Shown piece by piece: positions 93 to 37,829 of a stretch of DNA of 64,000 nucleotides. A program made the translations under genes and the position numbers. The notes below the pieces were generated by a model that worked only from the letters and a program-made list of their open reading frames with translations, had not been told where the DNA came from and ran no database searches. Source of the DNA: Escherichia phage ECD7; sequence record NC_041936.1; one strand, given 5' to 3'. Within the stretch, counting starts at the first letter, position 1; each line of letters opens with the position of its first letter.

Positions 93-168
93 TACTGATT
101 CCTCAAATGAAAATATTTATTAACAATTGTCGCTTTGCGACGTGCCGGAGGCACTGACTACTTTTTAA

Positions 169-214
169 CCGAAACAAATTTTCTATTATTCTAAAGATCT
201 TTCTTCGTTTTGGT
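169..214. repeat. intergenic repeat copy A (exact 24-mer ttctaaagatctttcttcgttttg at 189..212 shared with copy C)
   Basis: Direct sequence comparison with 37544..37603 and 37703..37752. Confidence 0.7.
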
Positions 215-282
215 TATGTTTTAACCAATAACTATATTTTTATACAGTAATAAATAAAACGGGTACTATACGAGGACTTCTT

Positions 283-6190: not shown

Positions 6191-8091
6191 CAAAGCAAAA
6201 GATTACACAAATTCCTGATATTTTTAATGCTGCTACATTCGATGAAATTAAAAGCGCATTAACAGACTGGATGAGAAACCAGGAAGAATTTAAAGATTTT
6301 GATTTTAATGGTGCTGGTATTAACGTATTGATGGACTTGCTCGCATATAATACCCTTTATATTCAGCAATTCGCCAACGCCGCGCTATATGAATCTTTTA
6401 TCAGAACGGCAATTAAGCGTAGTTCAGTTGTTCAAGCCGCGCAAGATTTAGGATATTTGCCAGCGAGCAAAACGAGTGCATCGACTACAATTATGTTGCA
6501 TGTATCACATCCGCGAAATCCGGCAAGTATTCGAATCCCACGAGGAACTAAATTTATTGCAAGTGTGGATCGCCAGACGTCTTATCCGTTTGTGACTACA
6601 GAAGACGTTGTGAGCGTTTTAGGTTCAAATGGTTTATATACGCCTATGCTTAAAGTCGCACAAGGTCGTATTGTTCGTACAGAAATGTTATTTGATCCGA
6701 AGAAACAAATTCTGATCCGTGATCCTGATATTGACCGCGCTCAGGTTAAGTTGTGGGTAGACGGTGCTGAATGGAAAGACTGGACGCGAGAAAGTATTGT
6801 TAATGCAACTGGCGCTAGTAATATTTTCTATCTGCGTGAAACCGTAGACGGACATACTGAAATTTTCTTTGGTGAGGGTGAATCAACTTTATCTGCTGCT
6901 GGCGGTGCACTGGAAGCAAATTATATTGGTGGACTTAAGCCGTCAACTGGCGCTAATATTGTTATTGAATATATCAGCACTAAGGGCGCGGAAGCAAACG
7001 GTTCAGTTAATTTCACATACGCGGATACCCTTGCATCTATCTCTATTGTTAAAATTATTGAGAATCCGACAAATGATCGTGATTATGTCGGTGCAGATGG
7101 TGGTGGTGATCCTGAATCAATCGAACGTATTCGTGAACTTGCTCCGGTAATGCGTGAATCTCAGCGTCGTTGTGTAACTGCGTCCGACTATGAGGCTTTT
7201 GTATCTAGCCGTTTTGGTAGTATTGTTCAGGCGGTACAATGTTTCACCGACCGAGAAAAACCGGGTTATGCTTTTGTTGCTGTTAAGCCTAAATCTGGCT
7301 TGCGCTTGACAACTGTTCAAAAAGAAGATATGCGGGATTATCTGGCAAAATATAATCTTGCCCCTATCACTCCGAGCATCATTGACCCTAACTATCTGTA
7401 TATTAAACAGAATATTAAAGTTTCCTATTCAATCAATGACTTGTCAGAATCAGAGCAGTGGTTGCGCGGTGCGGTTATTGATCAGATTGATGCATATTAT
7501 ACCGACGAAGTGGAAATTTTTAACCAGACCTTTAGTAAGTCTAAAATGCTTGCGCGTATTGACAAAGCTGATGTATCTGTGATAGGTTCTAGTGCAGAAA
7601 TAGAGATGGTGCGAGAGATCGACAACTTCTATAAAGCACCGATGGCTGGAATCAAGTTTTTAAACCAGTATAAGAGCGGAATCAAGTCTAGTTCATTCAA
7701 CTTCGAAAAGGACGACAAGCAATATCCAATCCATTATGTAAGTACAGAAATGAACAAAGAATCCGGTTTAGCTAAATTGCTGGTTGGACCTTTCCCTGTT
7801 GATTCTACAATCGCTTTACCGCACTATTCCGGCACTGATTTTGATAAAGAGGTTATCGACGGTGCGGACCTATACTTTGAGGTTGGAGAGGTTCAGCATT
7901 ATGACGACCTTATTTCATGGGATCTGGGTAAACTGAATATCAATAGCGATCGCTTTACTGGTTCATATATTGAGTTGACAGCTAAACCGATTGCTGATAA
8001 CATCTTTACTAAAGACGGTTCTTTGATCGTGTTTGAAAACGATCTCCGTCCTCAGTACACAACTATTAGTCTGGAGGCAATTGCTCAATGA
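6187..8091 (+). CDS. 6: baseplate wedge protein gp6
   Basis: 634 aa, synteny 5-6-7-8. Confidence 0.85.
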
Positions 8092-11000
8092 TTAAAGCGC
8101 CTAGTGTAACTAGCTTGACAATAGAAAAATTGTCTGCTAATCAGGCGTATATCACATGGGATGACGTAGGCGAAAACTTCTTTTATTTTGTGGAGTTAGC
8201 CGAAACCAGAACGCGAGACGGGGAGATCATCCCCGTCGATGAGTTAAGCTGGGTAAACCTGGGATATACTGCCGATCAAAACTGGTTTGAGGATAAAAAC
8301 CTTTTTCCAGAATATTATTACAAGTTTCGTGTAGCAGTAGCCGCAGAAGGATTTGAACAAAGTAAATGGGTTGAGACAGAAGAGTTTCAGACATTTAAAA
8401 CAAACGCATATAATTTTTCTATGATGCGAGAGTTCAACCTTGCAAACGAGTTTATAAAGGAAAAATTTACATACGATAATCGAGAGTATGTCAAGTTTAA
8501 TACTGACCTGATTCAAGCATCATTGATGAAGGAAGATTTTGTCTTTAGTCCTGAATATGCAAACATGACAAATATCTCAAACTACATTGTAGTTGATGAG
8601 AACTTTCATGAAATACAGGATCACATAGAAAAAGTTTGTACTGATATAAACCGCACAATGTTAGCGGAAATGAACGGTGTTTTGTACCTTTTCGAACGGT
8701 TCCAGCCGATCGTGAAAGTGTCAAATGATAAAGGTCAATCATGGAAAGCATACAAGGCTTTTAATGATCGTGTAGGCAATCCGGTTTCCCGCACATGCGT
8801 TTATCAGTCTAAAACCACTACTTACGTTTTAGGATATGACCGAATCTTTTACGGACGACAAGCTAGCGATACTCGATGGAGCGCGGACGATGTTCGATTT
8901 AGTGATGATACGATCACTTTTGCAAAGGTTGGTGACGAGAACGATTTAGGCTTTGATGTTGAGGTCTTTGGTGTATTTTCCAGATTAACAGGTGATACCA
9001 CAAAATACGCCGAAGCTATGGCGTGCAGTGATGACTATTTGTGGGTTGGTGCTAAAGATGTTATTCGCCGGATTCGTCTTAAGAATACTCCTGTTGATAC
9101 CGTACAGGGTTCGCCTACGTTTGGAGAAAAAATATTCGATCCTGATGTTATACGAGTAACAGGAAATGATAAAGCTGTCATTCAGAAAATGGATGTGATC
9201 GACGGTAAATTGCTTGTATTTGTTACGGGTGAAGTTAAACAGCGTTATCAAGATCCAACTAAACCAGAAAACGTTGTTCCGTCAGATGATGCGGGTGTAT
9301 ACTTAATAGGGAGTGATGGTCTGTCTTTTCAGAGAGTATTTGGCAACACTCCGCAGGAAAGGGAATATATTCAGCACGGGTTCAGTAATATGTCAACCAA
9401 TGGTGATGAGGTGTTCATAAGCCATTATAATCATCACTTCGAAAGCATTTTACCTGATCCAGAAACTGCCGCAAAATATGAATTAGGCGAAGCTGTAAAA
9501 TATTCTCAGGAGCCAACTTATCTAACTGATAAGAAAATACATCAAACTACTTTCAGAGCAAGTTATGATGATTTGCGTATTTGGGAGTTAGGACCGCAAG
9601 CGTATTATAACGAGGCTGATTATACATGGATGCGTCGAAACGGTGTCCGTGTGTGGATCACAAATGATAATCGCCCGTTGGTTGTTTATCCAGAGGTTGT
9701 CTATACTCAAGAAGTTGATACATCTGGCATTCTTGACCAAAATAGGGTTAACCGAGAAGTTTATGATAAAGGGACCGTGACCTGTTATCTTAACAATGTT
9801 AAATTTGAAGGATTCAAACAATATGCATCCGGTGTAATGTTCCATAAAAACACAGGAGAGATCATTGGATTCTATCAATTTAATTATCGTGTTCGTGATC
9901 AGGTTGGTGTATATTGGAAACCTACAAATGTAGCATTTGTTGCTGAATTGCAAAATCAGGTTAGAGAGGTTCCCTGGGTTCCGGTTCACTACGATCGAGA
10001 GCAAGATCCAGATTTGCGGCCTTTACTGAATAAGATGACCCCTGATAGCTTTTTACTTGAGAACGAAAATTTCAGAAAATTCTCTGAATATTATCTGCAA
10101 TTCTTAAGCGATGGTTCAGGAACATATTATAATAAACTAAAAAATCTGATTAAAAACAAATATCCACGCGAGAAAGATGCATATGAGTATCTTTGGTCAG
10201 AGATGAACAAACGAAACATCTATGCAGATAAAAACAAGCGAGATGCGGTAGTAAGATTCTTTGAATCCCGCAAATCAGATTTTTATTCCACTAAGGGCGT
10301 GGAGGCTTCTTATAAGTTCTTGTTTAAGTTACTTTATAATGAAGATGTGGAAATTGAGGTTGAATCACAAGCCGGACTAGAGTATGATATTGTTGTTAGT
10401 TCAACGAACATTGACGAGGATATCGTAGGTCGCACGATTTATACTCCAACCGGACGGGCTAACGTGACGTATCTTGAAAGGGAATATGAAGGTGGTCGCC
10501 TACGCTGGCGAGTAACCATTCATAACCTGATCGGGCGGTTCGAAGAAGGTCAAGTGATCAAATCAGAGAAAACAGCGTTTGAAGGGATGATCCTTGTTGG
10601 TGTACGTGGTAAAGAGTTGTTGAGTAGTTCAATCGACTATATCAACCGCTCACGAAGCCAATACACCATGAAGATTAAAAGTGCATTGCCAGTTTCGCGC
10701 TATGCAAATGATGTAATGCGATTCGTTCATCCTGTCGGCTTTGGGTTTATCGGTGTTACCCTGCTTACAATGTTCATTAACAGCGGGTTAAGCATGAAGC
10801 ACACCGAGACTATAATTCAATCTCTGAAAAATTATAAGTTTGACAGCGGATTGCCTAGCGTGTATCCTGATCGGGTGGCAGACCTTGACGTTGACGGAAA
10901 CATTAAGAAAGACCCGCTTACCGGAAAAGCATTATATTTGACTTCACCTTTAATTGGTGAAGAATTTCCGGTTCCTCCTGAATATGATCAGGAGAACAGC

Positions 11001-37424: not shown

Positions 37425-37543
37425 AATATTTCCTCCATAGAAAGCAATATCATACTACAAGTTAATAACAAATACAAGTATCCGCGTAGCGGAAGCGAGC
37501 ACAGCGAGCAATAAAACACTTCCAGTAATTGATTAATAAATGT

Positions 37544-37603
37544 TCGAAACAAATTTTTATTATTCTATAAGATAAGTCTTCGTTTTGATCATAATTTAAT
37601 CAT
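37544..37603. repeat. intergenic repeat copy B
   Basis: cgaaacaaattttt-tattattcta-aaga...tcttcgttttgatcataatttaatca shared with copies A and C. Confidence 0.7.
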
Positions 37604-37702
37604 ACATGTAAAAACTACACAAAAGGATATCGCTTCGCGAACTCCTACGGAGTATAACATTTGTGTTACAATATGTAGTGATTAATAATTAACCAAAGAT
37701 AC

Positions 37703-37752
37703 ATTTTCTATGTTCTAAAGATCTTTCTTCGTTTTGATCATAATTTAATCAA
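37703..37752. repeat. intergenic repeat copy C (24-mer at 37713..37736 identical to copy A)
   Basis: Direct sequence comparison. Confidence 0.7.
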
Positions 37753-37804
37753 ACAGTATTAATATTGTGCACATGTAAACTAAAATTATGTTAATAACAG
37801 ATAC

Positions 37805-37829
37805 AAAAAAGCCGCCCCAAAGGACGGCT
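37805..37829 (-). terminator. rho-independent terminator (minus strand)
   Basis: On minus strand GCCGUCC-UUUG-GGGCGGC followed by T6. Confidence 0.6.

Follow-up and report, generated by a model that had tools for sequence, protein, structure and literature searches.

A structured intergenic repeat, distinct from the PeSLs, at four sites in RB49-like phages and in an Escherichia coli prophage

Introduction

The T4-type coliphages RB49 and Phi1 carry intergenic cassettes, the PeSLs, in which a near-consensus early promoter (GTTGACA-17-TATAAT) is coupled to a stem-loop with G/C tracts (Arbiol et al. 2010, PMC2839356), and these cassettes occupy hyperplastic regions upstream of ORFans (PMC2839356). 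The origins of T4 itself are units of ~100 bp with an AT-rich unwinding element, found in late-gene regions near strand switches, and one of them, oriE, has iterons (PMC3016281). The oriF and oriG origins need a promoter that reads into the unwinding element, giving an R-loop, and no sequence motif is common to the T4 origins (Kreuzer and Brister 2010, PMC3016281). The d(GNA) mini-hairpin, unusually stable as DNA and far weaker as RNA, is found at the priming origins of G4, St-1 and alpha3 and at RSF1010 ssiA, and also in the promoters of the N4 virion RNA polymerase (PMC13037366).

The DNA analyzed here, referred to as the window, is a 64,000-nt stretch of Escherichia phage ECD7 (NC_041936.1). 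The window phage belongs to Krischvirus, the RB49/Phi1-like T4-type coliphages, and the window shares 99-99.9% identity with Escherichia phage Phi1 and others of the genus. RB49-like phages serve in phage therapy and, to our knowledge, T4 is essentially the only T4-like phage in which replication origins and further cis-acting DNA sites have been mapped.

The module described below is like the PeSLs in being a ~100-bp repeated intergenic motif of the same phages, in having stem-loops and, perhaps, in being a substrate for homologous exchange between its copies. Unlike the PeSLs, it is without such a promoter, it is made up of an AT-rich palindrome and mini-hairpins with GNA triloops, and its loci are in virion-gene regions (gene 3/ORF130, ORF165/ORF164 by gene 24, and gene 35/36). 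It is a new variant among intergenic structured repeats, distinct from the PeSLs, and an earlier sequence-only reading of the window had rightly set the family apart from the promoter cassettes of the alt-to-30 region, which are PeSLs.

Results

Four copies of one module

The 24-mer TTCTAAAGATCTTTCTTCGTTTTG is found exactly, on the plus strand, at 189-212 and 37713-37736, as first reported. It has no further match in the window at three or fewer mismatches, and 100 dinucleotide-preserving shuffles gave 0 matches versus the 2 observed. The sequence-only reading had assigned the 24-mer to a ~50-bp element with three copies, one of them diverged. The diverged copy, copy B, is real: its palindrome spans 37530-37602, it has an exact 26-mer in common with copy C (37577-37602 = 37726-37751) and it agrees with copy A at 39 of 44 bases. 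Both the size and the count had been set too low, as the actual unit is 75-110 bp long, an imperfect palindrome with adjoining GC mini-hairpins, and the genome has four copies; a genome-wide motif search run on Phi1 found the element to recur elsewhere, at a fourth copy, copy D, outside the window. Judged from the sequence, the 24-mer is the best-kept part of a ~100-bp non-coding module with the following features (window coordinates, except for copy D).

Copy A: spacer between gene 3 (minus strand, start 92) and the small ORF130 (plus strand, 283-537)
114..121, minus strand: late-promoter-like AATAAATA for gene 3, just beyond module A
129..141: GC mini-hairpin 2, GTCGC TTT GCGAC; perfect 5-bp stem, 3-nt loop; terminator-like on the minus strand
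142..154: GC mini-hairpin 1, GTGCC GGA GGCAC; the loop is GTA in Phi1 and RB49
166..216: palindrome, TAACCGAAACAAA ... TTCGTTTTGGTTA; 74.5% AT; folds on both strands, z ~ -2.1
189..212, plus strand: 24-mer, 3' part of the loop and right arm
210..228: small 19-bp dyad, TTGGTTA-N5-TAACCAA, overlapping the right arm
249..256, plus strand: late-promoter-like AATAAATA for ORF130 (283-537), beyond the opposite edge of module A
Copies C and B: 413-bp spacer between ORF165 (minus strand, ends 37838) and the DprA-like ORF164 (minus strand, start 37424), adjoining gene 24
37481..37493: copy B GC mini-hairpin, TCCGC GTA GCGGA; C-GNA-G triloop; terminator-like on the minus strand
37530..37602: copy B palindrome, inner arms ATGTTCGAAACAAA/TTCGTTTTGATCAT; 81% AT; RNAfold z -2.6 (plus), -1.3 (minus)
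37630..37653: two copy C GC mini-hairpins, TCGC TTC GCGA and ACTCC TAC GGAGT; minus-strand loops GAA and GTA
37679..37752: copy C palindrome; includes the 24-mer (37713-37736) and, at 37726-37751, the 26-mer in common with B
37805..37829, minus strand: intrinsic terminator of ORF165, 8-bp stem then TTTTTT; marks the upstream edge of the spacer, outside the repeat
Copy D: Phi1 149926-150014, inverted, spacer between gene 35 and gene 36; outside the window, found by short-word blastn of the whole of Phi1

Read on the minus strand, the unit consists of an AT-rich imperfect palindrome, a spacer of 10-60 nt and, with loops of 3 nt, either a single GC mini-hairpin or a pair of them. After these, a T-rich stretch precedes the next gene's promoter region. 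Each palindrome is 51-74 bp long, and the modules are 74-81% AT. Palindrome arms of ~13-22 bp (inner arms ~13 bp) enclose a loop of ~21-25 nt that keeps AAGAT, and the 24-mer comprises the 3' part of this loop together with the right arm. The outer arms of B and C are TGATTAA/TTAATCA, and the small dyad of copy A has a counterpart, TTGAT-N9-ATCAA, in B, C and the prophage variants described below. The stems are weak (-9 to -16 kcal/mol, with z only -0.4 to -2.6), and the arms of copy C pair worse than those of A or B (z ~ -0.5).

All three window copies are 5' of minus-strand genes, as the sequence-only reading had noted (gene 3, start 92, and the DprA-like ORF164, start 37424). The minus strand faces the local downstream gene in each case, gene 3 for copy A and ORF164 for copies C and B, and likewise gene 36 for copy D. 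Copies C and D are each 3' of a strong terminator, copy B is 3' of the hairpins of copy C, and copy A is between two divergent late-type promoters. Because C, B and D lie between a terminator and the next promoter and A between divergent late promoters, all Krischvirus copies are expected to occupy spacers with little transcription. The late-promoter-like site of gene 3 (121-114) is one of only two minus-strand WATAAATA sites in the whole 64-kb window; in RB49 late promoters, position -13 can be A or T (PMC1524935). A perfect TATAAATA is found ~15 nt after module D, ahead of gene 36. The repeat itself has no T4-type late promoter (TATAAATA or AATAAATA) within it, all of these sites being outside the module.

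Copies A and D are 95.5% identical over 89 bp in unrelated flanks, and B and C form a tandem, 169 bp apart. Copy C has a chimeric look, with a left arm like that of A (TAACC) and a right arm like that of B (GATCATAATTTAATCA). A profile HMM of the family gave exactly four matches in Phi1 and in RB49, each with E <= 2e-11, the next having E = 0.25. When 50,697 phage records were searched with blastn, the element was found only in 57 Krischvirus records and nearly always at four places per record; all four copies are present in essentially all of the 57, with no empty site among them. By-eye inspection of the module flanks revealed no target-site duplications, and no indel polymorphism was seen at module copies between Krischvirus genomes. 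The module had no match in a plasmid collection, and among GTDB species genomes a 20-base pattern matched nothing and a scan seeded with the prophage terminase protein gave no confirmed match. In a comparison of JSE with the window, the spacers are conserved no better than the neighboring genes. A short ORF across the core was considered and rejected, as indels between copies break its frame.

The coordinate offset between the window and Phi1 shifts by ~1 kb between the two loci (62359 versus 61341), from which the window phage would be without ~1 kb of Phi1, somewhere in the baseplate-to-head region (700-37000).

Pairing of the palindrome arms

In an alignment of 12 variants, five from Krischvirus and seven from prophages, the proposed structure has 79.9% of its cells paired versus 28-46% when partners are slid, and 12 of 22 pairs show two-sided changes versus 0-5 in the slid controls, statistics that are inflated by the kinship of the variants and by the use of one set of sequences both to derive the structure and to count its pairs. 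None of 500 shuffles reached the observed pairing values. Individual substitutions restore pairing: in copy D of JSE a G.T becomes G-C, and in copy C of a metagenomic Krischvirus genome from IMG/VR a C.A becomes T-A. Within one genome, copies A and D differ from B at paired positions and pairing is retained, which argues for intrastrand pairing over recognition by one sequence-specific protein. Ten diverse prophage variants were fetched, and among them the arm sequences differ while complementarity stays; variant L089 has a perfect 13-bp arm pair (TACATCAAAAGAG/CTCTTTTGATGTA) and L087 pairs CAAACGTA with TACGTTTG. Wobble pairs in the inner helix number 13 versus 10 on the two strands, with no strand bias. 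The well-kept half is on the opposite side in prophage variant L090, and the orientation of the module relative to its flanking genes differs between Krischvirus and the prophage.

GC mini-hairpins and their loops

About 16 of the 19 distinct mini-hairpins read C-GNA-G on one strand, versus 1 of 9 elsewhere in Phi1 (Fisher p = 4e-4). The perfect GC triloop hairpins of Phi1 are also concentrated here, 4 of 13 being located at the modules, which amount to ~0.5% of the genome (P ~4e-7). All three loop substitutions seen (GGA/GTA, GAA/GTA and GAA/GCA) affect only N, the first of them being the between-genome change in mini-hairpin 1 of copy A. Mini-hairpin 2 of copy A, with its TTT loop, is the sole Krischvirus mini-hairpin without GNA. 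The ssiA heptamer of RSF1010, CCGAAGG, is also the heptamer of the prophage hairpins. Two of the mini-hairpins are terminator-like on the minus strand, a GC stem followed by a T-rich tract; the AT-rich palindrome is without terminator features and the prophage hairpins are without a U tract. Taken at the level of sequence comparison, the compensatory changes and the preservation of the loops indicate that selection maintains both arm pairing and GNA loops.

A homologous module in E. coli prophages

When IMG/VR was scanned with CAAAACGAAGANNNATCTT, a single Krischvirus contig came up beside ~24 prophage-like contigs of ~35 kb, the latter with a 41-nt core 90% identical to copy C. The module match covers 75 bp (E = 8e-9), and the GC triloop hairpins of the prophage module, two in number, flank the palindrome on the side on which Krischvirus has its own. 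The prophage, which is unrelated to these phages, was found in 58 of the 5,426 complete E. coli genomes examined, each prophage having one module copy, and in strain DEC5A it is inserted in hicB. Its genes include a lambda-type portal, a GpA-type terminase and a Rha/Ant-like gene; PHROGs and Pfam scans of the prophage neighbors recognized terminase subunits, portal and Rha/Ant only, and no replication initiator. In the DEC5A prophage (locus L078) the module is in a 1.27-kb non-coding region without annotation (8049-9322), together with six AAACCTACACTA iterons (8614-8740) and several more GC triloop hairpins, a layout that may be ori-like or regulatory. The same region has a perfect palindrome, TTGACAGTTGTCAA, at ~8405.

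The prophage and Phi1 also have in common an LprI-family (lysozyme-inhibitor-like) gene, found at 4100-4885 of L078 and as ORF262 (157890-158690) in Phi1. The two are 67.6% identical at the protein level, and their DNA is 94.8% identical over 385 bp at the 5' end. This shared gene indicates that the virulent T4-like phage and prophage lineages exchange DNA, and have done so recently. When proteins of the prophage region were compared by tblastn with Phi1, RB49 and the window, only the LprI-like protein was shared and no DNA-binding protein was; tblastn of ORF164, ORF165 and gp24.3 against the prophage loci gave nothing.

Promoter and RNA signals

The sequence-only reading had suggested a second class of early or middle promoter. 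A 51-nt weight matrix was made from 41 of the 51 RB49 early promoters of Nolan et al., extracted from the RB49 genome. At the three window loci its best scores on either strand are -10 to -18 bits, versus 9.4-58 for the training sites, and as a positive control it recovers ten PeSL promoters at 52-62 kb of the window. These scores argue that the loci are not PeSL early promoters, and no early promoter at these loci is in the Nolan et al. list or annotated in the RB49 record, so that the early-promoter suggestion is left without support. A middle promoter is unlikely, as neither motA nor asiA is annotated in Phi1 or RB49.

Copy C had also been credited with a plausible plus-strand promoter, TTGATC-17-TATTAAT, directed toward the hairpin at 37805-37829 and able in principle to give a short antisense RNA. 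The string is present (37734-37763) but is a poor promoter match: its -10 is without the last T, the corresponding hexamer is GTAAAA in copy B and TGAAGG in the prophage homologs, and it is not called by the consensus scanner (sigma-70 criteria of at least 9 of 12 hexamer matches, the -10 having A second and T sixth). The hairpin is actually the minus-strand terminator of ORF165. Consensus promoter and terminator scans called only the neighboring terminators and two mini-hairpins. Rfam searches of the window and prophage loci gave none at the gathering threshold, and only chance-level or terminator matches at E <= 10. A by-eye check for IHF, FNR, Fur, DnaA and H-NS consensus sequences gave no convincing match.

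Elsewhere in the window, an early-promoter-like GTTGACA-17-CATAAT is found on the minus strand at 36714-36664, its 13.2 bits being above the weakest training site. It is inside the 3' end of late gene 24, in antisense orientation, and could give an anti-late RNA or be a chance match.

Discussion

The reading we prefer, and propose tentatively, is that the module may be a DNA-level structural landmark of an origin- or priming-like kind. In this proposal an AT-rich imperfect palindrome beside one or two GC mini-hairpins with C-GNA-G triloops would form a composite that acts as folded DNA, either single-stranded or extruded from an underwound duplex. Once folded, it could mark where DNA transactions such as priming, or the loading of replication or recombination proteins, are to start, a role in which resemblance to ssi signals or to the unwinding part of an origin would be expected. 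Being repeated, it would also lend itself to recombination, both among its own copies and with prophages in the same cell.

A role in DNA is favored over one in RNA by the wobble pairs, which show no strand bias, by the varied orientation of the module, including that in L090, by the clustering of triloops and by the enrichment of C-GNA-G. The little-transcribed spacers, the iterons beside the prophage module and the AT-rich composition and late-gene-region position also count in its favor. Against it are the weak stems, the poor pairing of copy C, the inflation of the covariation statistics, the spacers that are conserved no better than nearby genes and the lack of a detectable promoter that could feed an R-loop, and the two terminator-like mini-hairpins with their T-rich tracts fit a role in RNA.

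The comparison with known DNA signals is similarly two-sided. Like ssi sites and other priming origins and the N4 hairpin promoters, the module has short GC stems with a C-G-closed GNA triloop in non-coding DNA; unlike them, it shows no wider sequence homology to these signals, and no cognate primase or virion RNA polymerase gene is evident. The oriV of RSF1010 combines iterons, an AT-rich stretch and inverted ssi sites. As with oriF and oriG of T4, the modules are ~100-bp AT-rich units, several per genome, in late-gene regions, and the iterons near the prophage copy recall oriE. They differ from oriF and oriG in that no promoter is detectable, the four copies are homologous and no motA is annotated. 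A literature search for RB49 origins or palindromes returned nothing relevant.

A more specific form of this proposal, which we consider unlikely as it stands, is that RB49-like phages, being without the MotA-dependent origins known from T4, initiate replication or priming at the four modules. The AT-rich dyad would unwind or extrude, and d(GNA) mini-hairpins resistant to SSB/gp32 would mark the point of engagement for a primase or helicase loader. The E. coli prophage with which these phages exchange DNA would use this device as well, in its ori-like region with the iterons.

Whatever its role, a structured module under selection gives three precise loci at which questions of origin, priming, recombination and insulation can be asked. 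The module is fixed at four sites genus-wide and is common to a prophage of the same host, and it testifies to DNA exchange that still goes on between virulent phages of T4 type and E. coli prophages. Even as only a structured spacer, it would be a second repeat family besides the PeSLs in a model of genome shuffling.

That the module works instead as an RNA boundary element is also improbable in our estimation. Read-through transcripts would fold into an AU-rich hairpin and GC mini-hairpins. By backing up terminators, blocking exonucleases or being processed by RNase, these would insulate the promoters and genes downstream, most of them late. The same strand follows local transcription in all four Krischvirus copies, U-rich tracts come after the mini-hairpins on that strand, where two are called terminator-like, and the ~22-bp stem with internal loops would be of a size for an RNase III substrate. 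Stable intercistronic hairpins are, by the 1988 account of Tuerk et al., reportedly a feature of T4. However, little RNA should cross modules A, C and D, since C and D come after strong terminators and A is between divergent promoters. The prophage copy is in the opposite order relative to its downstream gene and has hairpins without a U tract, GNA triloops stabilize RNA little and the wobble pairs are without strand bias. A terminator role would also leave the conserved loop sequence unexplained.

Still lower is the chance that the module is a double-stranded site for a dimeric or architectural protein of host or phage, for example an operator or an upstream element of the adjacent promoters, with arms that co-vary because both half-sites must fit the same protein. 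The sequence-only reading had offered binding by a phage regulator; copies within a genome differ in arm sequence and yet pair, which weakens the idea, and we keep it as a rival. In its favor, the module has dyad symmetry, including the conserved 19-bp dyad (TTGAT-N9-ATCAA or TTGGTTA-N5-TAACCAA), and is 15-140 bp upstream of promoters; the factor could come from the shared E. coli host, and the arms of the prophages vary like immunity types. The different arm sequences of A/D and B in one Krischvirus genome are difficult to reconcile with it, as is the lack of a DNA-binding protein common to the prophage region and Phi1, RB49 and the window in the tblastn comparison. By eye, IHF, FNR and Fur consensus matches appear to be absent, and half-sites 35-40 bp apart would be unusual.

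We regard it as similarly doubtful that the repeat is selfish or neutral, either a palindromic element of MITE type or a scar of recombination, spread by homologous exchange as PeSLs are and with no dedicated function. Like REP/BIME, ERIC/IRU and Correia-type MITEs, the modules are hairpin-forming imperfect palindromes in intergenic spacers, in either orientation; unlike these, they are four fixed copies with no target duplications and no presence/absence polymorphism. No sequence similarity to the ERIC consensus was noted in an informal comparison. The 95% identity of A and D over 89 bp in unrelated flanks, the chimeric copy C, the B/C tandem and the recent exchange seen in the 385 bp at 94.8% between the prophage and ORF262 all suit a repeat of this kind, as does a homing-endonuclease gene whose insertion point, in one metagenomic genome, coincides with the edge of module A. 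The presence of four copies in essentially all 57 Krischvirus records, with no empty sites and, by eye, no target-site duplications, does not, and the compensatory changes and kept GNA loops indicate purifying selection on structure. The related suggestion that the copies are recombination hotspots gains from the chimeric copy C, from the near-identity of A and D and from the module and a nearby gene being common to the prophage, and we retain it in part.

A sigma-70 promoter on either strand (including the short antisense RNA of copy C), or a small RNA gene ending at the mini-hairpins, is very improbable: there are weak plus-strand strings in A (TTGGTT-17-TATATT, upstream of ORF130), C (TTGATC-17-TATTAA) and D (TTGGTT-16-TATAAA), and a TAGAAT on the minus strand in A, B and D, but the matrix scores are -10 to -18 bits, the consensus scan misses the strings, the hexamers are unconserved in copy B and the prophage variants, the best-conserved bases would be in the spacer or upstream of the -35, and Rfam gives no match.

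The surroundings of module A are variable in another respect. In the metagenomic Krischvirus genome IMGVR_UViG_3300045988_033703, an HNH/AP2-type endonuclease gene (L038 2148-2681) is inserted between module A and gene 3, its junction being the exact edge of module A (CAATTG), and in Phi1 and the window another endonuclease gene is found on the other side of ORF130. These differing insertions around module A and ORF130 mark the locus as a homing-endonuclease insertion hotspot. At 543-563 of the window, between ORF130 and the convergent endonuclease/gene 2 block, AAGCCCGTCAATGACGGGCTT is a hairpin that resembles a terminator in both directions, each strand having a T tract.

The prophage also has a motif seen in T4-type phages. 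The sequence TTATAAATA, identical to the T4-type late-promoter core, is found in L078 at ~9262 (plus), 10057 (plus) and 8121 (minus), and at least three prophage genes have it 45-90 nt ahead of them. Upstream of a variable gene of 111-150 aa, all 11 prophage variants compared (including L082-L091) keep it unchanged. It may be a promoter motif of the prophage's own, or an infecting T4-like phage may turn these genes on.
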